Shown: positions 4,531 to 33,200 of the stretch, in pieces | How positions within the stretch are numbered: position 1 is the first letter of the stretch | How the letters are laid out: each line of letters starts with the position of its first letter | IMG/VR virus record: IMGVR_UViG_3300047409_000500 | Coordinates: 1-51,986 of that record | Length of the DNA stretch: 51,986 bases | Reading direction: 5' to 3' (one strand) | Source: a virus | Lineage: Duplodnaviria; Caudoviricetes | Program-made: the position numbers and the translations under genes | Notes under the pieces: generated by a model | What the model was told of the DNA's origin: nothing | The model's database searches: none | What the model saw: only the letters and a program-made list of their open reading frames with translations

Positions 4531-5678
4531 ACTTCCATTACCTTGAGGCGGGACTGGACCAGCCTGCCATTGGCCCGCTTCCCCTCGATCACAATTTCGT
4601 TCGTGGCCTCATCGAAGCGGGCCAGGGCCATGGGCACGCCGCCGACCATATAAGCGCCCGTCACGTTGCAATCGCCATCGACGTCCAGCTTGTGAGCGGG
4701 CGGGTTCTCGCCGAGGCTCAGGCTCCACACCATCCGCACGTAGGATTGCTCGCCGCTCATCAGAATGCCTACCGACCAATCGTTAGTGCGCAGCGAAACC
4801 AGATCGCCATCCTGGTGAATCAAGACCCACTCGTAAGGGACCGTCCCGTTCTTGTCGGGGAAGGTCACGTTGCCTGTAGACAGAGCGCCCGAAGGTTGAA
4901 TTCGGACGGCGCTTGCGCTATTCAAGGCGAAGCCAGCGGCATCGACGTCGCCCGTCCAGGGAGTTTGGCTCCCGCCGCCGCCACCCCCGCTGATCGGGGC
5001 ACCGTTGACGAAGTATTGGCCTGTGATGTTTACGTCGCCCTGCACGACGACCGCATAGGGACCTGCGCCGGGTCTGCTGGTTTGATTTCCAAAGAAGTGG
5101 GCGTTCATCGCAAATGAGATTCCACCCCCGCCCGTCCAATCCACTTCCATCAGCGTAAAACCCGAGGCTGCGAGTTGCCATCGACCGGAGAAGCATTGAC
5201 CGAAGAAGTTTGTGCCGCCGGGAAAATTAGCGCCATCCGACCAACGAATCGTACTCACATAATTCAGGGCGTGATTTGCCGCGTCGATATCCGAGGTCCA
5301 CGGAGTCTGCGAGGTGTCGGCGGCCCGGGTGTCCTTCAGCGTGGTTTCGATCACGATGCCCACATCGCGCAACTGATCCGTCAACACGGGGATTGAAGCG
5401 CCGCTCGGCCACAGGATGGCGTTGCTTTTCATCTTCCCGGTGGTATACACCAGACAGGACACGGCCCCAAACGTGGCATCGGCATCCTCGCCTACGATCC
5501 CGTTCGGTGCGGTCGCGCCCGAGGTGATCTCTCCGGTTCCTGGATCGATATGGACTACCGCGCCGCGCTGGTACGCGCCGGATGAGAGCGTGCCCTGCAC
5601 ACTGATTACACTGGACCCATCCACCAGGAGCGAATCCTGATCGGAATCGCCTTCGGTCAGAAAACCCGCGACGGGCAT
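4527..5678 (-). CDS. second head-decoration-like protein fused to fibre-like modules
   Basis: N-terminus aligns by eye to the 43324..44223 decoration protein; SQTPWT(S/G)D(I/V)DAA motif occurs twice and is shared with the tail fibre; AAGGAG RBS before ATG 5678. Confidence 0.7.
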   Translation of the reverse strand: MPVAGFLTEGDSDQDSLLVDGSSVISVQGTLSSGAYQRGAVVHIDPGTGEITSGATAPNGIVGEDADATFGAVSCLVYTTGKMKSNAILWPSGASIPVLTDQLRDVGIVIETTLKDTRAADTSQTPWTSDIDAANHALNYVSTIRWSDGANFPGGTNFFGQCFSGRWQLAASGFTLMEVDWTGGGGISFAMNAHFFGNQTSRPGAGPYAVVVQGDVNITGQYFVNGAPISGGGGGGSQTPWTGDVDAAGFALNSASAVRIQPSGALSTGNVTFPDKNGTVPYEWVLIHQDGDLVSLRTNDWSVGILMSGEQSYVRMVWSLSLGENPPAHKLDVDGDCNVTGAYMVGGVPMALARFDEATNEIVIEGKRANGRLVQSRLKVMEV

Positions 5679-15610: not shown

Positions 15611-16873
15611 ATGAAACAAACCCGTTTGACCCGCCGTAAAGATGCGAACTACCTTTCGGCCTATCGCCGCCATGCCGACGGCTGCACCGAAACCAATGAT
15701 TTGAATTGCAGTTGCCCCCTTTGGGTTCAGGGCCGCCTCGCCGGGAAATACGTCCGCGAAAGCCTGAACACTCGATCCTATCCCATGGCGCAACAGCAGA
15801 TTAAAGACAAGCTGAACCCGCCCGGTCCCGGCGGTCCCGGCGGCGGCCCGCGCCCCGTGGAAATTACCAGCGGGGCCGTTACCCTGGAGGCCGCCGAAGC
15901 CGCCTTCCTGAAATACAAGGCTGACAAGTCCGCCAGCACCATCAAAGAATACAGCTACACGGTGAAGCACTTCCGGCGCTTCGCCGAGGCGCACGGTGTG
16001 ACCGATGTGCGCGCCGTGGCCCCGCCCTTGATCCAGCAGTATTTCCTGGAGTACGGCAACGCCTGGGGGCAGCGCACCAAAATTACCCGCGCTACCTACC
16101 TTCGCATCTGGTGCAAATTCTGGTGTGAGATGGATTGGATTACGGTTTCCCCGGCGGACAAGAAGCTCTTCAGCTTCGCCCGCCCCACGGTCCACGCCCG
16201 CGAACCCTTCAGCATTGACGAAATTAAGAAGATCATGGAGGCCGTCGAGCTTGTGCCCGAGAGTCTTCACCAGGGGCGTGGCGATTGGCGCGGCGAAACC
16301 ATGCCTCACAACCGGGACCGCACCCGCGCCCTGGTGCTGCTGCTGCTCTATAGCGGGATGCGAATTTCCGACGCCGCATTCCTGGAACGCGCCTCGATCA
16401 GCCGCGCGGGCATTCTCGATTACGTGGTGATCAAAACCCGCCGCCAGATTGGCCTGCCCATTCAACTCCACGCGGACGCCATCGCGGCGCTGGCGAAACT
16501 GCCCGGCACGGGTGATTTCTTTTTCCTGCCGCCGGGCGAGTACCGCGCGGCGCTTGACGCCCGCCACAAGGGCCAGCGCTTCGAGGCCAAGCTGCCCGCG
16601 GGATTTATGCGGCAGTCGGTAGCCACCACCGCAGCGCTTATCGAGCGCGTCCTGGAATTGGCGGGGCTGCCGGGGCGGTGTCACCGCTTCCGCGATACCT
16701 TCGCGGTCAACATGCTGGTCGGCGGCGCGGATATTTATACCGTGTCTCAGGCCCTCGGCCACGCCGATGTGAAAATTACGAGTCGCCATTATCTGAATTT
16801 GATTCCCGGCTACCGTGAACGCATGAGCCAATCCACGCGGGTTCTAAATTATCAGTTACCCAAGGCGGGGTAA
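15611..16873 (+). CDS. int: tyrosine integrase
   Basis: LLYSGMRISD (R), HRFRDTFA (HxxR), LGHADVKITSRHY (H, Y). Confidence 0.92.
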   Translation: MKQTRLTRRKDANYLSAYRRHADGCTETNDLNCSCPLWVQGRLAGKYVRESLNTRSYPMAQQQIKDKLNPPGPGGPGGGPRPVEITSGAVTLEAAEAAFLKYKADKSASTIKEYSYTVKHFRRFAEAHGVTDVRAVAPPLIQQYFLEYGNAWGQRTKITRATYLRIWCKFWCEMDWITVSPADKKLFSFARPTVHAREPFSIDEIKKIMEAVELVPESLHQGRGDWRGETMPHNRDRTRALVLLLLYSGMRISDAAFLERASISRAGILDYVVIKTRRQIGLPIQLHADAIAALAKLPGTGDFFFLPPGEYRAALDARHKGQRFEAKLPAGFMRQSVATTAALIERVLELAGLPGRCHRFRDTFAVNMLVGGADIYTVSQALGHADVKITSRHYLNLIPGYRERMSQSTRVLNYQLPKAG

Positions 16874-16888
16874 AGTAGGATCTTTCCG

Positions 16889-16919
16889 AAGGGGCGGCCT
16901 CCGGGTCGCCCCTTTTTTT
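16889..16919 (+). terminator. intrinsic terminator, possibly bidirectional
   Basis: AAGGGGCGGCC-TCCG-GGTCGCCCC followed by T7. Confidence 0.8.
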
Positions 16920-16920
16920 A

Positions 16921-17014
16921 ATCCTTGCGTCGTCCAGCCAGACCGAATCGTGCCAAACCATGCCACACCACACTAAGCCCAATCTAGCCTTGCCAAGTCC
17001 TACCGTGACCCGCC
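16921..17014 (-). ncRNA. stand-alone GG(Y)NN pentamer unit (array C), candidate guide RNA
   Basis: Minus strand ggcaa ggcta gattg ggctt agtgt ggtgt ggcat ggttt ggcac gattc ggtct, then an A-run and a hairpin. Confidence 0.6.
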
Positions 17015-17128
17015 TTTTTCCGTTTATGGGGGCCGCCATAGGCCCGCCGGGGGCGTAGGGGGGCGACGGTTCCCCCCTGCCACCCACGGAGGCCGCCACG
17101 GGGCGGAAACGGGCCGCCATGGGGCAAT

Positions 17129-17383
17129 TTATCGCCCCGTGCGGCGGTACGCATTCTGTTGATAAACCCGCCGCGCCACCGATTCAGGAATGCGCAGGGA
17201 CACATAGGCCCGCTTGCGATTCTTCGTCAGTTTGCCGACCCCGAATTTGATTACGCCCGGTTCGTTGGCAAACCACTTGCGCAGCATTCGGGTGGACATA
17301 TGCCACGCTTCGGCCAGCTGCGCAATCGTGTAATGTTGCTCCAGAAAATCGGGGCGGTCGGTTTCCATTGGTTCCGCCATCAT
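17129..17383 (-). CDS. excisionase-like HTH protein
   Basis: HYTIAQLAEAWHMSTRMLRKWF...LRIPESVARRVY; next to the integrase. Confidence 0.7.
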   Translation of the reverse strand: MMAEPMETDRPDFLEQHYTIAQLAEAWHMSTRMLRKWFANEPGVIKFGVGKLTKNRKRAYVSLRIPESVARRVYQQNAYRRTGR

Positions 17384-17646
17384 GATTGGTATCTCCTCCT
17401 TGCCTCGCCATCGGGATATTCCTGCAGCGTCACCCCGGCCCGGGCGAGGTCGTCTTCCAGCTGCGCTAGATTCTTCGGGAAGGTTTCGTTGTGATCGTGA
17501 TGCAGCACCCAACACAGGACGTCCAGGTTGTGCATCATCGTCGCCTGCGTGTTGGGATCCACGGTCTGCCCCGTGACGGGATCGAGCAGCACTAGGGACA
17601 ACAGATCGTGCGCCCGTTGGATCTCGGCCTCGGTGCGTATCGTCAT
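17380..17646 (-). CDS. hypothetical protein
   Basis: ATGA overlaps. Confidence 0.6.
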   Translation of the reverse strand: MTIRTEAEIQRAHDLLSLVLLDPVTGQTVDPNTQATMMHNLDVLCWVLHHDHNETFPKNLAQLEDDLARAGVTLQEYPDGEARRRYQS

Positions 17647-17762
17647 CGCTGCCCCCACCAGGGCTGCGCGTGGCGCTGGTCGTCGCGGCGGCGGCGCGAA
17701 GGCCGCCGGGCGAAGAAGACCAACACCAGGAAACTTCCGATTACAATCGCCGGCAGTAACAT
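17643..17762 (-). CDS. small membrane peptide
   Basis: TGATG overlap, AAGGAG RBS, one hydrophobic helix followed by basic residues. Confidence 0.5.
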   Translation of the reverse strand: MLLPAIVIGSFLVLVFFARRPSRRRRDDQRHAQPWWGQR

Positions 17763-17938
17763 CAGTCCCACTCCTTCGTTAAACGTGCCCGCCATTCGGT
17801 GAGCAGTAGATCGGCAGCGTTCGCGGCCATCGCCACGGCCTCCTCGACCGTGGCCTGTGTTTCCGTCGCCAGGATCGCGCCGAGGGCCGTCACAGCGGCG
17901 CGTTCCCAAAAGTCACGCTCGGGATCCTTCTTATTCAT
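17762..17938 (-). CDS. small hypothetical phage protein
   Basis: MNKKDPERDFWERAAVTAL...AADLLL; ATG directly follows array B. Confidence 0.6.
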   Translation of the reverse strand: MNKKDPERDFWERAAVTALGAILATETQATVEEAVAMAANAADLLLTEWRARLTKEWD

Positions 17939-18758
17939 AAGCCTTGCCTCTGCCCGCCATAACCCGCCCAACCCATCCTGCCCGGCCTCACCGATTCACG
18001 CCTCGCCTTACATGGCCGACCCCGACCTCGCCTGCCCGGCCAATCCCGGCCAATCCCGGCCACGCCTAAACATGCCTCGCCTGCCGCGCCTCGCCGCCCC
18101 AGGCCCGACCTTTGCTCTACCTGCCAAACCCCGCCTGCCTCGCCATACCCACCCCGATCCGACCTTGCAATATCGCGCCAAACCTGATCACGCCGCGCCT
18201 GCCTTGCCAGCCCCCGCCTAACCTCGCCGATCCGCACCTAAGCAGTCCTAGCCTGCCGCCCTCCACCGGATCGCGCCGGGCCTACCATGCCCAACCTTGC
18301 ACCGCCTGCCCAACCGCGCCATCCCCGGACTCGCCAATCTCCAACGCTCCATCCCACACCCCGCCATACGATGCCAGCCCAACCCTTCCGGGCCAGCCCC
18401 GCCGAGTCGCTCCTAATCCCACCGGGCCGACCGTACCGGGCCTGCCAATCCGCGCCCGTTCTCCCCGTTCCAAGTCGCGCCATCCCAACCCTTACCGAGC
18501 CTGCCTCGCCGTACCCGGCCCGGCCCGTCCAACCGTCTCCCGACCCAACCTCGCCTGCTATGCCCCGCCGTCCCGGATCGGACCCGTACAAGCCGTGACT
18601 CATCCAGCCCGACCGACCCACGCCGTGCCTGCCGTGCCGCGCCTTGCCTACGCTGGCCGTGCCATGCCGTAGCCCCCCCGTACCACGCCTGCCAATCCCC
18701 GCCAGTCCTTGCCTGGGCCGACCGCACCTAATCTCGCCGTACCAGGGCCAGCCATGCC
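17939..18758 (-). repeat. array B: ~820 nt GG(Y)NN pentamer array punctuated by GGCA-GG(C/T), candidate multi-guide ncRNA
   Basis: 5-nt periodicity read directly; plus-strand CCTGC delimiters at 18688, 18628, 18554, 18500, 18441, 18305, 18252, 18198, 18134, 18080, 18031, 17977. Confidence 0.85.
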
Positions 18759-18764
18759 AGAGCT

Positions 18765-19247
18765 TTACGGCACCGCATCGTCGCCGCTCAAATCGGGCGG
18801 CGGCGGCCGGTGCCCATAATTTCGCGCGGCTCTTTCGATTGCGGCGAACACGCCAGCCAACTCTGAAAGCTGGAAGTACTTCACCTTTAGGCGATTCAGT
18901 TCATCCAGTGCATCGGTCAGCATTTGCGCGCGTTCGGATGGGGCCGCCAGCACTTGCGCCATAACGCGATACCCGCCCCCGTCAAGCTGCCGATCCGGTG
19001 TCAGGCTGATGAACGCTCTTACTTGGTAGTGGGGTTCATCGTGCGGAAGTGTCTCCACGGTGACGCGAATTAATTGGCGGGCCTGTTGCAGCCGCCACTG
19101 GTGGGCGGCCAGCCCATCGTCCCACTGGAAGTAACCGTGGAGAGGCGAGTCGGGGTGACTCGCCTCCGCAATTACATCAGCCGGACGCAGCAGCCCGTAC
19201 ATCGCTTGAATGCGATATAGCTCCTGTACCACGTCGATTCTTGGCAT
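18765..19247 (-). CDS. conserved phage protein, partner of the RAMP-like gene
   Basis: LRPADVIAEASHPDSPLHGYFQWDDGLAAHQWRLQQARQLI motif; starts 6 nt after the upstream gene. Confidence 0.8.
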   Translation of the reverse strand: MPRIDVVQELYRIQAMYGLLRPADVIAEASHPDSPLHGYFQWDDGLAAHQWRLQQARQLIRVTVETLPHDEPHYQVRAFISLTPDRQLDGGGYRVMAQVLAAPSERAQMLTDALDELNRLKVKYFQLSELAGVFAAIERAARNYGHRPPPPDLSGDDAVP

Positions 19248-19253
19248 TTTGTT

Positions 19254-19991
19254 TTACCCCAGTGCAACACGATCTATCAGTTTCGTTGCCACGGCATTGT
19301 TGAAGGATTCGTTGCCGTTGGTCTTTTCGATTTCAAACAGTCCCCAGCCCATTCCGGCTGAGTGCTTACTGTCGGGACGCCCCTCGCAGATACCAACCTG
19401 CTGGCCCACCCGCGCCAGCAAGTTAGTCACGTCCTCGAGGGTGAATTGATCGGCATCCCACCGGATGCGCGCGACCGCCGTCCAGTTGTGATAGGCCGCG
19501 CGCACGGTGACATACGGCTGCCCGGTTTCGACACGCGCCATATCCGCCTGCTTGACGGGAGTCGCGTCGCAAATTCGGATCAGCGGGATCTGTGGTTCCT
19601 CGGCATCGACGCCGTCCTTCTCGACGAAGACGGAGAGCTTGGCGAGGACCATTTTGAAGTCCACCAAGCGGCACGCTGAAATCAAGGCTTTCCGAAGCGA
19701 CCCCGCGTGAAAGCCATCCCACCCTTCGCGGCTGATGTATCGCGCCTCTTTGAAAGTCTGGTCCGTGTCCTTCGGTTCCCGATTCTTCTTACTCGACGCT
19801 GCCTTGCCCGTTTCCATCTTTTCTTGCATCTGGTTCTTGAGTTTGGCGCTGAAGCGATGAATTACCAGCGGGCAATCCTCCATGCCGATCAGCTTGAAAG
19901 ATGCATGTTGAAAGTTCACCGGACGGATGTTAATTGTCTTGGATACGGAAGTCTTCGTACCCGCTTCGTTTGCGTTTTTTTGAGTTGCCAT
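19254..19991 (-). CDS. Cas7/RAMP-like protein (candidate Vipr-like effector)
   Basis: PLVIH, GFHAGSLRKALISAC and the C-terminal G-rich loop GICEGRPDSKHSAGMGWGLFEI mirror RAMP motifs; AGGAGG RBS. Confidence 0.7.
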   Translation of the reverse strand: MATQKNANEAGTKTSVSKTINIRPVNFQHASFKLIGMEDCPLVIHRFSAKLKNQMQEKMETGKAASSKKNREPKDTDQTFKEARYISREGWDGFHAGSLRKALISACRLVDFKMVLAKLSVFVEKDGVDAEEPQIPLIRICDATPVKQADMARVETGQPYVTVRAAYHNWTAVARIRWDADQFTLEDVTNLLARVGQQVGICEGRPDSKHSAGMGWGLFEIEKTNGNESFNNAVATKLIDRVALG

Positions 19992-20050
19992 AGCAACCCT
20001 CCTAGATTGAAATTTCTTTCGTTTTTGCCGGGTCGAAAGATAGCCCCGGT

Positions 20051-20590
20051 TTGTTTAGCCAAGCAATGCCGAGTCCCGCCATGTCATGCCTCGCCGTTCC
20101 CAACCTTGCCTGCCATACCTCGCCCAATCGCTACATGCCTAACTGCTACATCCCAGGCCGCCCGAAACGAGACGCACCAAGCCTGCGGTTCCCTGCCCAA
20201 TCTTTCCGACTCGCCCATTCCATAACGCGCCCCGCCCCGCCGTGCCTGCCGGGCCAGCCCAGGCCAATCCCGACCTTGCCCCATCAGTCCTTCCATGCCG
20301 ACTCGGACCAAACCTGCCAGCCCGCGCCTCGCCCCATCGCGCCGCGCCTCAACTTGCCGTCTCGCCCCAAGCCCCGCCGACCCTTGCCGTGCCAAGCCTG
20401 CGAGTCCGATCCCTGCCGCGCCATCGCTTTCCAGCCGACATCGCGCCGAATCGCGCCCTGCCTGCAACGCCGAACCTCAACCAGCCCGGCCCCCAACACA
20501 ACGTGCGGCACCACGCCGAACCAATCCCCGCCTGCCACGCCACGCCCCGACGTGCCCCGCCTATCCTCGCCCCAACTCGCCGTGCCCATC
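20051..20590 (-). repeat. array A: ~540 nt GG(Y)NN pentamer array punctuated by NGCA-GG(C/T), candidate multi-guide ncRNA
   Basis: 5-nt periodicity; delimiters at 20531, 20461, 20397, 20313, 20245, 20182, 20109; hairpin at 20028-20049 follows. Confidence 0.85.
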
Positions 20591-20594
20591 TCAA

Positions 20595-20975
20595 CTACTG
20601 CTTCGTGCCTTCCGAATCGCCGGGCGCTCCGAAGTCAAGCCCCTGTTGCATCTCCTCGGCCGTCATGGCGACCTCTCGAACGTCCTCCCCGGAATCCGCG
20701 CGGCGGATGGTCTTCATGCCCGCCCGGGGCACACCGTAATAGGCGATGCATTGGACCTCGCGCATTTCGCTGCGGTCCTTGATCTTCCCGGCCAGGGTGA
20801 AGACCCGCCCGTTGGCGCGCTTCAAGTCCGCCGAGATCGCGCTGGTGGCTTCCTTCTTGCGTGCTTCGATTTCGCGCACGTCGTCGGCGGCGCGCGCCAA
20901 GGCATCACCGAGTTCCAGCAACTCGGCCCTGGTGAAGGTGTACTTTAATTCTTCGATTACCAGCTTCTCAGCCAT
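20595..20975 (-). CDS. conserved phage hypothetical protein (coiled-coil)
   Basis: GAGGAG RBS; IRRADSGEDVREVAMTAEEMQQGL. Confidence 0.7.
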   Translation of the reverse strand: MAEKLVIEELKYTFTRAELLELGDALARAADDVREIEARKKEATSAISADLKRANGRVFTLAGKIKDRSEMREVQCIAYYGVPRAGMKTIRRADSGEDVREVAMTAEEMQQGLDFGAPGDSEGTKQ

Positions 20976-21122
20976 CTACATCTCCTCTTCCGCGCCGCAG
21001 TCCAAACATCGATAACCGACCCAACGACGGCGCTCTTCGGTCCCATCAGGATGGGTAACTCCGGTGCCTGATTCACCGGACTCCTCGCGCAAATTCCAGG
21101 AACCGCACACGGAGCACACCAT
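20976..21122 (-). CDS. 48-aa Zn-ribbon protein
   Basis: Read by hand: MVCSVCGS...YRCLDCGAEEEM; fills the gap exactly. Confidence 0.6.
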   Translation of the reverse strand: MVCSVCGSWNLREESGESGTGVTHPDGTEERRRWVGYRCLDCGAEEEM

Positions 21123-21124
21123 CA

Positions 21125-22111
21125 CTATTTCCCCGTCGTCTGCGTCGGCGGTCCCGGGGCCGGGCTCTCCGGTTCCGCCTGGAGAAAACTTTCCTGGGCG
21201 AGAATCTTGTCGCGCACCGACCGCCCGCGCGGCGGCGCGGAATCCTCGGTGGGCGGAGCGTCGATGGCCCCCTGCAAATCCGCCGGCAGCATCGCGGGCG
21301 GCATGGATTCCATGGGGATCATCTCCAGCGCTTCTTCGCGGGACACCGCGCCGCGCAGCACGTGGGGCGCGTGGAATTTCTTCACCCGGCCCACCGTGCG
21401 CCAGTAGTACATGTCACGGCCCCAGGATTTGAAATTCCATTTTTCCGAGAGCGGGATCTGCTTGCCCTTCTCCCAAATCATCGCGGTGTCGGCATCGAAC
21501 TGCGTGAAGCTCACCGAGATGGCTTTGCCGCTGCGGTCGAGGATCGGATTGTAGCGCTGCTGGCTGGCGCTCCACTTCTTGATCCACAGCACGCAACCCA
21601 CGCACTTGCGATGCTTCCGGCCCTTATGGTCGACTTCATCCTCCAGCCATTCGATGTCCCACTCGTACCCGGCCTGCTGCAGCTTGGCAGCAATAATCTC
21701 GTTCTCGATGGCGGGCCGCCCGTTGGCGAAATAGAGGTAGCGCATCGAGTCAGCGGCGTTCAATCCCCAGTTACGGCCTAAATTGATCTTGACCATGGCG
21801 GTCGCAATCGCCTGATCGGCGGTGGCCGCCTTGAGATCGTCAAACTGGCCGCTAAGGGCGAACTCGCGCGCCAGCGCCCGGTCCTGGGCGAAGGTTTGCC
21901 GGGCCACCTCGGCGTCGACCAGCGCGCTGATCCACGCTTCGCGCTTCACGTTGTCGGGCATTTGCAGAAGGTGCTCGATGCTCACGCGCGAGGGCCGCCC
22001 GGTCGAGTCGGCCTGGGCGGGCTGCATGGATGGCGCCTGCGCGCTCAATTGCATCCCGGCGGCCGGGGGCGGTTCGGGCGCAGCGGTAGTGTTGCCTTCG
22101 GTTGGTTCCAT
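21125..22111 (-). CDS. RecT-like single-strand annealing protein (putative)
   Basis: Follows the YqaJ gene; LYFANGRPAI...WNFKSWGRDMYYWR...APHVLRG pattern. Confidence 0.6.
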   Translation of the reverse strand: MEPTEGNTTAAPEPPPAAGMQLSAQAPSMQPAQADSTGRPSRVSIEHLLQMPDNVKREAWISALVDAEVARQTFAQDRALAREFALSGQFDDLKAATADQAIATAMVKINLGRNWGLNAADSMRYLYFANGRPAIENEIIAAKLQQAGYEWDIEWLEDEVDHKGRKHRKCVGCVLWIKKWSASQQRYNPILDRSGKAISVSFTQFDADTAMIWEKGKQIPLSEKWNFKSWGRDMYYWRTVGRVKKFHAPHVLRGAVSREEALEMIPMESMPPAMLPADLQGAIDAPPTEDSAPPRGRSVRDKILAQESFLQAEPESPAPGPPTQTTGK

Positions 22112-30231: not shown

Positions 30232-33200
30232 TTATCCCGCTGTCACCCGCGCCGTCTCGGTCGGCCCGAGGGTCACAGCGCTGGCCCCATCGAAGAGGAA
30301 TTCCCCGGCGGCGCTTTCCACAATCGCGTTATGTGGCCCGGTGTCATTCACCACGTACAGCGTTCTGCCCTGGTATTGCGCGATGGGCAGCAATTGAATC
30401 GTCACATCGTTCTCGGTGGTGTCGGCGCGGATCGTCTGGTCGGTCGCCAGCGTGGCCCATGGCCCCAAGCCCGGCCCCACCACGCGCACCGTGGGCGGCT
30501 GGCCGTAGATGAAGATCTCGCGCAGCGGCGCGACCTCCTCGCTCGAATACTGGCCCCGGTCGTCGACCAGGAAGCCCCCCACCAGGGCGGTACGGTTGCG
30601 CAGGTTCTCCACCCGCATCTTGATCTCGACCCGCGTCCCTTCGCGCGGCACCTGGAGATCGCTCGTCTCCGTGGTGTAGGCCCAATCGGGATCTTCCACG
30701 ATGACGACCGAGGTATTGTCCGGGATCGTCTGCCATGCCGGGCTGACGGTGATTTGGGTATTGCTGTTGCCCGTGATGTAGCGCCACTGGCCCGCCCCGG
30801 TCCCGAACAGGATGCGCGCGATCCGCCCCTTCTCCTCGTCGACCGCGAGGCCCGGGCTGCCGAACTGATTGCGGGCCACGAAGTTATCCCACAGCGGGTC
30901 GGTGACGCTGTTGGCGGTCGCGGTAATCCCCACCGAGCGCAGGATCAGGACGTCGCCCTTCTCCACCGAATCGGCGGCCGTCCCGCGGACACAATCGGGT
31001 GTCACCGTGAAGGTCCCGGTAGCGCCATCGAAGTGCGTAATCGTGAAGTTCCACAGCGGGGCGCTGCCATCGCTCTGGTCGGCCAGCGCCGAGAGGATGC
31101 GTGCGGGCGGTCCTAACCAGTTATCCGTGCTGCCCTTGAAGTCATCGCTCTGGATCTGGTTGGGCGCGGTGACGCCCGTCACGCTGACGCCCGCGACCCC
31201 GGAATGCCAGATGCGCTTGGCGGCGATGGCGACCTTGCGCGCCCCGGCCTCGGGCATTCCCTCGGTCATGGGGTGGATCGGCCCGGCAAAATCCAGCGGT
31301 GTCTGGACGTTCATCCCGCTCGATTGCCGCGCCAGGGCGCGGCGGTCCTTGCCCGCCCACAGGTCCCACGGCTGATCGGAATCGGGCGAGGCGGCAATCG
31401 TCATCGTCACCTTCTGCCCGGTGACGCCCGGCGGGATCCAAAGTCCGATGAGGTTGGAAGGGGCCAGCGGCTGCATGGTGTTCATGCGTTGCGTAATCCC
31501 CACGTATACCGTCATGGGGCCAGCCAGCGTCCCGCCGGGGGCCAGGAAGGCCGCCAGGATACGCGGCTGCCTGCCGGGCGCGAACAGGTTGATGCACATC
31601 TGCCCGGCGACGTAGATGGTCGCGTCCCAACTTCCATCGCGGGCGATGCGGTAGTCCTGCCAGAGATCGAAGGTGCGCTGCAGCGGGTCGGTGTACAGCG
31701 GGTCGTTCGCCACGGGCGCGATCTCGTTGGGCATCCAGGTGAGCCCGGTGATCGACGGCAGCATCTCGGGCGGGACCGGGGCGGCGGTGGCATCCTCGGG
31801 CTTGGGGCCGAAGGTCAGATTGTACATCGCGTCCGTGGTGGGTGTCGCGTCGAGGTCGATGCTGAAATCCGGGTTGAGCATCCACTTCACCACGCGCCCC
31901 TCGGCGTACCCGGTGGGTAAGGCGGGATGTCCCTGGCCCGGCTGCAAGCTGCCAAGCGAGATGATATCGCCCGCCATCGTATGCAGCCCCAGGACCGTGG
32001 TGCGGAAGCGCAGGGACCGGGCCTTCACCTGTTGGTTATCTGTGATCGCGCCGCCCGCATCCCGAACCACAATCCCCCCGATCTCCTCGCGCAGCCGGGT
32101 GGTGGCGATGCGGGCCGCTTGGCTCTTGTTGCTGACGCCCACCAGGGTCATCGTGGAGGCGTTGAACTGGGGCGATTCCACGGTCCCGGCAAACGCCGCC
32201 TGATCCATATCGTAGATGGTGACGTTGTTTAACTGCCAGTTGAATTCCTCATCGCCAAACTCCACCGTCAGCTGATTGAATTGCGGCTGAATCGGAACCG
32301 TCTCCAGGCTCTTGAAGAGGATGTTGGCGCGGGTGTAGGTGTTGTGGGGAAGCACGCCCGAATTCTCGCGGATGCCAAGCCAAAGCTTCCCGTTCACGAA
32401 GGTGTAATAGCCGAGGCAGCAATTCAAGATCTCCTGCAGCCAATCCTTGAGCGGCTTGCGCTCCTTCAAAGCGCCCCGGAAGGGATACTGGCGCTCCTTC
32501 CCGGTGCCGACCAGCTTGTCTACCTGGAGATCGCAGATCGCCGCCATGGCGATGGCCTGCTGGACATCGAAGAAGGTTTCCATCTGCGCCGGGCTGACGA
32601 GCGCGTCCTGGCCCTGGCCGACCCGCAGGCCGATGGCGCGCAGGTAGACGTTGACGGCTACCCAGATCGTGTTAGCCAGCGCGGGCGTCCAGACCCGCGC
32701 GCCGGGGGCGGTCCACGTCCAGCCGCCGATGCCGCCCGTTACGGTCACTGTCATTACCCGGTCGGTGATTTGGGTGAGTTGGGTTCCGGCTTCATCGGTG
32801 CGCCGGATCTCGGCAAACGCGAGGCCCGCCGCATAGGTCGATCCCGGCGGGACCGTGTTCCAGGGTGCGGTGTCGAGGGCGAAGAAATCGCTGGTGGCCG
32901 CCGGGTCGTTGCCCGTGATCCCGCGCCAGCCGCCGCCGTGGACCGGATCGTGGGGCGGCTGGTTATCCAGCTTATGATTCATCAGGTTGGTGTCGTAACC
33001 GGAGATTGGGCCCTCCCCCACGATGCCGAGCGCCGAGTAGAATTCGCTCTCGTCGCGGCCCGCCGCCACGTCGCAAGTAACGACCATCGCTTCGTCGGTA
33101 TAGACCTCCTGCACCACGCGCTGATAGACGGTATCGGCGGCCACGGTGACGCTGGTCAGCCCCGAAGAGGCCCATCCGATGGTCCCGCTATCCTGCGGCA

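Follow-up and report, generated by a model that had tools for sequence, protein, structure and literature searches.

A degenerate pentamer array upstream of a predicted RAMP-fold gene in a temperate soil phage: the probable guide-RNA array of a VIPR system

Array A is a tract of five-base units directly upstream of a predicted RAMP-fold gene in a 51,986-base soil virus record, here called the window. In all likelihood the record is that of a temperate soil phage with a VIPR (Viral Interference Programmable Repeat) system whose upstream array of guide RNAs (vrRNAs) is array A. What we observe here is the periodicity of the array, the joints that divide it, the strand-specific co-occurrence of such arrays with the vipr gene, and the RAMP fold of the gene product together with its profile match to the Vipr protein of SUSP1. 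Formation of the ribonucleoprotein, the code that skips 1 nt and the silencing itself are known from experiments on the SUSP1 and P. fulva systems (10.64898/2026.04.26.720920, 10.64898/2026.04.26.720927); the clade described here would, by analogy, work as those two systems do.

Introduction

VIPR, first described in 2026, is a CRISPR-like form of RNA-guided DNA silencing (bioRxiv 10.64898/2026.04.26.720920, 10.64898/2026.04.26.720927, 10.64898/2026.10.15.759431, 10.64898/2026.10.21.760802). Vipr, a phage-borne RAMP protein with an RRM core, a glycine-rich loop and a thumb, coats a vrRNA in which GGY and NN segments alternate. Every protomer sequesters a GGY and leaves the NN pair exposed; the NN pairs read double-stranded DNA with one base skipped per unit, and binding silences transcription in competing phages or satellites (10.64898/2026.04.26.720920, 10.64898/2026.04.26.720927). 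In SUSP1, the change of GGY to GAY is among the perturbations reported to abolish silencing (10.64898/2026.04.26.720920), and residue W178 stacks on the second G of the triplet (10.64898/2026.04.26.720927).

Types I-VII of VIPR have been distinguished, and the published accessory genes are vap1-6. Most of the characterisation so far concerns two systems of type II; for types III and V, too, small-RNA sequencing has been reported (10.64898/2026.04.26.720920). According to the legend of fig. S18 of the same preprint, there are also staggered arrays, in which individual vrRNAs come from positions that overlap by 1 nt. Small-RNA sequencing confirmed the ribozyme arrays and the single-vrRNA systems, and the available text of the preprint makes no such statement for staggered arrays.

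Results

The locus and its phage

The window carries genes for an integrase, a RecE-like exonuclease, a RecT-like protein and tail proteins, and the five sequencing runs listed as containing its DNA are all of soil DNA, none of them of RNA. Relatives of the locus are found in metagenome-assembled genomes (MAGs) titled as many different phyla, the closest being Gemmatimonadaceae and Acidobacteria MAGs, and no host was deduced. The features of the locus are collected in Table 1. The 126-aa ORF whose stop codon adjoins array A has homologs in three loci only and, to judge from the sequence comparison, is not a core VIPR gene. ARAGORN found no tRNA, and a scan of 16800-21200 for sigma-70 promoters returned 0 sites, a result that says little.

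Table 1. Features of the VIPR locus in the window, with the guide units of array A listed in the order in which they are read
Feature	Position	Strand	Description
Upstream ORF	20595..20975	-	126 aa, phrog_12688; stop codon adjoins array A
Array A	20056..20592	-	about 98 GGY+NN pentamers and 11 four-nt units; upstream of vipr; starts 3 nt past the stop of the upstream ORF
Putative vrRNA unit A0	20533..20592	-	60 nt; 10 in-register pentamers, then GGCA
Putative vrRNA unit A1	20463..20532	-	70 nt; one internal register break; TGCA end
Putative vrRNA unit A2	20399..20462	-	64 nt = 12 x 5 + 4; GGC and GAT units alternate; CGCA end
Putative vrRNA unit A3	20315..20398	-	84 nt = 16 x 5 + 4; cleanest and longest guide, GG in 13/16 units; GGCA end
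Putative vrRNA unit A4	20247..20314	-	68 nt; internal register break
Putative vrRNA unit A5	20184..20246	-	63 nt; internal register break
Putative vrRNA unit A6	20111..20183	-	73 nt; most degenerate, with GTA/GTC/GTT/AGT triplets
Putative vrRNA unit A7	20056..20110	-	last unit, 11 pentamers; then AACAAA
Hairpin	20028..20049	-	5-bp stem, 12-nt loop, without T run; between array A and the vipr ribosome-binding site
vipr	19254..19991	-	245 aa, predicted RAMP fold, glycine-rich loop G196...G217, phrog_4652
Accessory gene, vap position	18765..19247	-	160 aa, helical (model), phrog_15946
Array B	17950..18765	-	downstream; about 147 pentamers, 19 four-nt units, 12 GCAGGY joints
Array C	16925..17015	-	solitary, about 18 pentamers, beside the integrase terminator
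Intrinsic terminator	16888..16915	+	of the integrase gene; the hairpin that the earlier note tied to array C
Integrase gene	15611-16873	+	

Array A consists of tandem GGY/NN pentamers

Array A reads on the minus strand and is rich in G (265 of 565 bases, 47%). The GGC triplet recurs with a period of five: we counted 17, 17 and 21 co-occurrences at lags of 5, 10 and 15, as compared to 0, 0 and 1 at lags 1-3. The GG dinucleotide behaves likewise, with 52 co-occurrences at lag 5 against 26.8 ± 4.4 in dinucleotide shuffles (z 5.8; none of the 2000 shuffles scored as high) and a depletion at lag 3, where 8 were counted against 27.3 in the shuffles. Because of this period of five and the depletion at lag 3, array A is not coding sequence. 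Long ORFs cross the tract on both strands.

Parsing the array by simple dynamic programming yielded 98 pentamers and 11 four-base units. G occupies position 1 of the pentamer in 94 of the 98 cases and position 2 in 76, and a pyrimidine occupies position 3 in 75. The corresponding entropies rise from 0.31 through 1.04 and 1.69 to 1.89 and 1.96 bits over positions 1-5, as compared to 0.62, 0.81, 1.42, 1.92 and 1.97 bits in the clade as a whole; since the array caller rewards GG, the conservation of positions 1 and 2 is partly built in, and positions 3-5 are not favoured. GGY is thus conserved and NN hypervariable. Array A therefore consists of tandem GGY/NN pentamers (YNNGG, in runs well beyond four units) lying beside vipr and on the same strand, as is the case for VIPR arrays.

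Joints divide array A into putative guide units

The earlier note had placed delimiters at seven positions of array A. Each of the seven falls inside a GCAGGY motif, 4 nt from its first base (motif starts at 20535, 20465, 20401, 20317, 20249, 20186 and 20113), and the spacings we obtained, 70, 64, 84, 68, 63 and 73 nt, are identical to those given before. Seven occurrences of GCAGGY are far more than expected (1.15 ± 1.02 in dinucleotide shuffles, with 0 of 2000 shuffles reaching that number). At each joint a four-base unit (GGCA, TGCA or CGCA) is followed by a new GGY, and the next pentamer run is therefore shifted by one base. Put differently, a joint of GGCA and GGY is equivalent to two pentamers with one G in common, and there are 7 such joints in array A and 12 in array B. 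We found no conserved non-pentamer segment between the units of array A. Judged by the legend of fig. S18 (10.64898/2026.04.26.720920), array A would thus be a staggered array, with successive vrRNAs overlapping by 1 nt.

Array A is degenerate. The register is kept in two of its six spacings (64 and 84) and lost in the other four (70, 68, 63 and 73), seven of the 11 four-nt units lie at a GCAGGY joint, and GGY makes up 56% of the triplets, as compared to about 79% (GGC plus GGT) in the register-clean vrRNAs of the clade. As GGY to GAY is among the changes that abolish silencing in SUSP1, some units of array A may be weak.

The units of array A had been described as longer than those of array B, which is indeed the case: the spacings are 63-84 nt in array A and 60, 74, 54, 59, 136, 53, 54, 64, 14, 40 and 49 nt in array B. 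A claimed excess of GAT and GTT triplets in array A survives as a trend in the expected direction, 13 of 98 pentamers against 11 of 147, and is not significant (Fisher p 0.19). Neither the share of GGY (56% in A, 62% in B; p 0.43) nor the proportion of register-clean spacings (2 of 6 in A, 6 of 11 in B; p 0.62) sets the two arrays apart, leaving unit length as the only clear-cut difference.

Array C has no GCAGGY joints. It has small ORFs on one side and the integrase terminator on the other, in the vicinity of the likely attachment region.

The adjacent gene encodes a putative Vipr protein

The 245-aa product of the gene downstream of array A belongs to no Pfam family and falls in the unannotated family phrog_4652. 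A profile built from 35 homologs matches PDB entry 36pp_D, 'SUSP1 Vipr protein', with an E-value of 2e-4 over 53 residues that extend from the thumb to the glycine-rich loop. In this alignment R138, D177 and R179 of SUSP1 Vipr correspond to R164, E203 and R205 of the window protein, all three invariant among the 35 sequences, as is the G-rich loop near the C-terminus. SUSP1 W178, on the other hand, aligns in the HMM alignment with an invariant glycine, G204. From the alignment, this replacement may allow a relaxed reading of the second base of the triplet.

The AF2 model of the protein has a pLDDT of 85.1. When it was searched with Foldseek, the top matches were the Cmr4 and Csm3 RAMP proteins of type III CRISPR complexes, with a probability of 1.0 for the first two and 0.9-1.0 down the list, at low TM-scores of 0.39-0.42. 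The earlier description of the adjacent gene as RAMP-like is thus borne out by both the Foldseek matches and the profile match to SUSP1 Vipr, and on the strength of sequence profile and structural model we assign the product of 19254-19991 as a predicted Vipr protein with a RAMP fold.

Homologs of this protein are encoded in 33 deposited phage genomes (27 of Mycobacterium phages, five of Gordonia phages and one of a cyanophage), all annotated as hypothetical proteins. Examples are Cyanophage Cy-LDV1 (31484-32113), Mycobacterium phage Donkeykong (gene 49) and Gordonia phage Ecliptus (gene 19). The cyanophage homolog shares 50% identity with the window protein and those of the other deposited phages share 27-30%.

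Array architecture is shared across related loci

We collected 105 related loci, 46 from a scan of IMG/VR and 59 from a scan of genome contigs, and ran one array caller on all of them, requiring at least 30 units for an array. An array on the vipr strand is present in 93 of the 105 loci (127 arrays in total), as compared to two arrays on the opposite strand; this strand bias argues that the functional form is a transcript rather than duplex DNA. One of the related loci (L036) holds a sizeable pentamer array with GCAGGY joints opposite the vipr strand, at 4956-5344, beside arrays on the vipr strand, which may be an inverted array or a second system.

The spacings between successive GCAGGY joints in the clade follow a simple rule, with 402 of 515 equal to 5n+4 and 49, 54, 44, 59 and 64 nt being the commonest. 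Among the 46 viral loci and the window the four-base units are GGCA (263), TGCA (46), GGCG (33), CGCA (29) and AGCA (18); GCA at the joint is imposed by the search motif; nothing in the procedure forces the 5n+4 rule, the strand bias or the randomness of positions 4-5. The register-clean vrRNAs of the clade, 335 when only unique ones are counted, comprise 7-16 pentamers, mostly 9 or 10; whatever the unit index, G accounts for about 90% of the bases in positions 1 and 2. The first pentamer past the joint is biased (GGCAA in 53, GGCGA in 48, GGCAT in 43 and GGCGT in 32 of the 335 clean guides), so that about half of the clean guides open with a variable pair made up of R and then A or T, as compared to the expected quarter. 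This may reflect a context preference at the guide boundary.

The position of the arrays is modular. Of 90 evaluable loci, 20 have an array upstream; of 83, 55 have one after vap and 25 have one in the gap that separates vap from vipr. In 90 of the 105 loci vipr is directly followed by a homolog of the 160-aa gene, and we therefore assign this gene to the vap position; an adjacent accessory gene is thus present, as judged by its place in the locus. The model of the 160-aa protein is helical (pLDDT 89.1). It has no Pfam family, with only weak and scattered matches among 33 aligned members (best E 0.0046), no sequence match in the PDB and no Foldseek match at E <= 1e-3; the best VIA match, at Z 4.9, is to a helical hairpin.

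The hairpin downstream of array A

As described before, the last pentamer is followed by AAACAAA (20056-20050) and a CCGGG/CCCGG stem (20049-20028). The earlier note had suggested a defined RNA 3' end here, a reading that comparison did not support. The predicted energy of the hairpin is -9.6 kcal/mol (z -1.16), 29 of 200 shuffles are as stable, and it was not called by a terminator scan. Its sequence recurs in only one of 107 loci (L003), which differs little from the window in the hairpin and in the leader as far as the ribosome-binding site, the guides having diverged. A clearly stable structure after an upstream array was seen at two of 19 array ends (L037 and L093, with the window counted among the 19), and the 70-nt segment that follows array A in the window has a z of -0.2.

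Array C had been said to end in the same way. A hairpin does lie there (16888-16915), and the resemblance is superficial: with 12 pairs and a T run after them it has the canonical form of a terminator on the plus strand, behind the integrase gene, and is better explained as such. To judge from these comparisons, the hairpin at 20028-20049 is a possible RNA end, one that the evidence does not support, and it is not a feature of the clade. A tail of the type II (SUSP1-like) vrRNA kind was considered and rejected on the same grounds: there is no conserved segment between units, and the terminal hairpin is weak and confined to one of 107 loci, with structure at two of 19 array ends.

A working model and its alternatives

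The core of the earlier note, that RNA-level pentamers with a fixed triplet serve the adjacent RAMP-like protein, agrees with published VIPR and with the fold, the profile match and the synteny described above. Since array A starts 3 nt past the stop of the upstream ORF, it more probably belongs to a long early transcript than forms a leader of its own. We propose that it would be transcribed on the minus strand together with the early genes as some eight head-to-tail vrRNAs, each ending in a 4-nt (N)GCA that puts the next guide one base out of register. Vipr made from the downstream gene would load onto the array with one protomer per GGY+NN pentamer, holding the GGY and presenting the NN, and the pairs of one vrRNA would read a DNA target as NN-x-NN-x, with one base skipped per unit; the bound filament would then silence transcription of a competing mobile element. 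The slip in register would both end the filament and mark the site at which the transcript is cut, and the off-register units rich in GAT and GTT would be weakened or decaying guides.

An array that has largely decayed, with A1 and A4-A6 as relics and only A0, A2, A3 and A7 usable, strikes us as rather doubtful but not negligible. It would account for the four off-register spacings out of six (70, 68, 63 and 73), for the four of 11 four-nt units that lie away from a GCAGGY joint, for a GGY share of 56% where clean vrRNAs of the clade have about 79%, and for the GAT or GTT found in 13 of 98 triplets; the change of GGY to GAY is among those reported to abolish silencing in SUSP1 (10.64898/2026.04.26.720920). 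However, array B is not significantly better, with 62% GGY (p 0.43) and 6 of 11 spacings in register as compared to 2 of 6 (p 0.62), G still stands at position 1 in 94 of 98 pentamers, and with a glycine in place of SUSP1 W178 the second base is perhaps read less strictly. The same glycine enters a more far-reaching proposal, which we consider unlikely, in which the slip is the sole punctuation: Vipr filaments would grow in phase, stop at GGCA and so measure out guides with no need of tail, ribozyme or Cas6-like nuclease, the off-register GAT/GTT units of array A would serve as a sink for Vipr in the leader and tune its supply, and the change from Trp to Gly at the second-G pocket would make this possible.

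The earlier note had also raised autoregulation. Array A would then be a cis-regulatory leader that binds and titrates Vipr and feeds back on translation of vipr or on transcript stability, with the hairpin setting the RNA end. The array is indeed directly upstream of vipr, with the hairpin 37 nt from the start codon; hairpin and leader are kept in L003 while the guides have diverged; upstream arrays recur, in 20 of 90 evaluable loci; and units that are off register and of low conformity could act as a sink instead of as guides. We nevertheless hold such a role to be distinctly improbable. An upstream array is missing from 70 of the 90 evaluable relatives, which rules out a general role of such arrays in the control of vipr. 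The hairpin is no better than shuffled sequence and is not a feature of the clade, where a clearly stable structure stands at two of 19 array ends. Furthermore, matches of the window's guide runs to the window's own sequence stay within the shuffled-guide null, and the experiments give no hint of it in so far as a term search can tell, the string 'autoregulat' being absent from the main text of 10.64898/2026.04.26.720920 and of 10.64898/2026.10.15.759431. That the tract is no VIPR RNA at all, and is instead a coding region, a DNA-level repeat (iterons, a G-quadruplex or an R-loop tract) or a CRISPR-like array, is hardly credible. Such readings could draw on the long ORFs that cross the tract on both strands and on its G-rich non-template strand, but a coding region could not show a period of five together with a depletion at lag 3, long direct repeats separated by spacers are absent, no Rfam family matches, and arrays keep to the strand of vipr (127 against 2).

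Search for natural targets

Taking the guide-array reading of array A, we converted in-register runs to the NN-x code (1-nt skip) and searched for matching DNA. With 17 in-register guide runs, searched against the window and 46 loci and then against 107 loci, the best scores were within the shuffled-guide null. The longest guide, A3, scored at best 21/32 as compared to a null maximum of 23-24, and the best score for array C was 25/36, at or just above the null maxima of 24 and 25. Exact seeds of units 1-9 searched in IMG/VR gave two matches for A3, which failed on extension (3/14 and 0/14), two for A7, which failed likewise (0/4 and 1/4), and none for A0. In one metagenome collection units 1-10 of A3 gave seven matches that reached 2-5/12 on extension, and the full A3 guide with up to three mismatches had no match in five genomes or in 401 genomes of one phylum. 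No natural target above chance thus emerged for A0, A3 or A7 from searches that allowed few or no mismatches, that cover soil phages thinly, and that are blind to the 80% match level used in the VIPR preprint.

Discussion

Relation to other VIPR systems

The locus of the window appears to be VIPR in its staggered, tail-less form, and is of an already known kind rather than a new one. With the staggered-array systems (10.64898/2026.04.26.720920) it shares the predicted RAMP-fold Vipr gene, the adjacent accessory gene, flanking GGY/NN arrays on the same strand and carriage by a phage, and, as in the legend of fig. S18, its vrRNAs would abut with a one-base overlap, here at the GGCA unit. The window differs from these systems, to which it is likened by the legend only, in its approximately eight guides upstream of vipr, many of them off register.

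With the type II systems of SUSP1 and the P. fulva prophage (10.64898/2026.04.26.720927) it has in common the GGY+NN pentamers, at 9-16 per guide; in SUSP1, as in the window, vrRNAs lie on both sides of vipr, and the arginines of the thumb and of the G-loop are kept (R138 and R179 in SUSP1, R164 and R205 here). Unlike the tail-less units of the window, which run guide to guide, the vrRNAs of SUSP1 are each about 100 nt long, of which about 40 nt form an invariant, pseudoknotted 3' tail, and a single vrRNA is upstream (10.64898/2026.04.26.720927). The sole 3' structure in the window is the weak hairpin, common to one relative. As for the protein, W178 is replaced by Gly and the similarity is limited to 53 residues (E 2e-4).

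Given that the available text of 10.64898/2026.04.26.720920 gives no small-RNA confirmation for the staggered form, the present locus is a reasonable substrate for questions of guide cutting and filament length. The soil-phage locus adds a well-delimited, tail-less staggered example, with three arrays and about 20 joint-delimited guide units, and the comparison of 105 loci yields a simple rule for guide boundaries, namely 5n+4 spacing plus a GGCA joint. It leaves the known VIPR mechanism unchanged.

Relation to Class 1 CRISPR and to triplet-binding regulators

The backbone of Class 1 CRISPR complexes, Cas7, Csm3 or Cmr4 on crRNA, likewise has the RAMP fold and places one protomer on a fixed number of guide nucleotides, and its thumb breaks the guide-target duplex periodically, as in VIPR. 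The period differs, being 6 nt with one flipped base in CRISPR as compared to 5 nt with three sequestered bases in VIPR. The window, moreover, has no repeat-spacer array, no cas genes and no repeat handle of the Cas6 type. A CRISPR array was accordingly rejected as a candidate: Tandem Repeats Finder reported short periods only, there was no Rfam match, and none of the 10 ORFs scanned around the arrays had a Cas Pfam match.

Short fixed triplets separated by short variable spacers and bound by an oligomeric RNA-binding protein are also typical of TRAP on the trp leader and of the CsrA-sponge RNAs CsrB and RsmZ. The triplets of TRAP and CsrA are (G/U)AG or GGA in loops, and these RNAs regulate or sequester the protein and do not guide it to DNA. 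No TRAP- or CsrA-type protein is encoded here, as judged by the lack of a Pfam match among the 10 ORFs scanned around the arrays.

Further observations on the arrays and the window

Four soil DNA runs, compared with the window, yielded the probable source contig and otherwise only short fragments of relatives; parts of array A (20194-20421) lack cover in the other runs, which shows nothing. In a contig of another soil run (X2), 20051 is followed directly by 20094, so that 42 bases at the 3' end of the array are skipped. This single contig of low depth suggests a relative with a shorter last guide.

In array B, the pair GGCCG GGATT stands almost three times over in one guide near 18035-18081, and the 10-nt tandem repeat CCCGGCCAAT that Tandem Repeats Finder reports at 18035-18062 is this same pair. 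Elsewhere, near the start of the window, G-rich tandem repeats lie on the plus strand at 592-722 and 6-46, with periods of 9, 15, 24 and 54 (GGCGGCCTT-type units) and of 8 (GGGGCGTG); their period is unrelated to that of the pentamer arrays.
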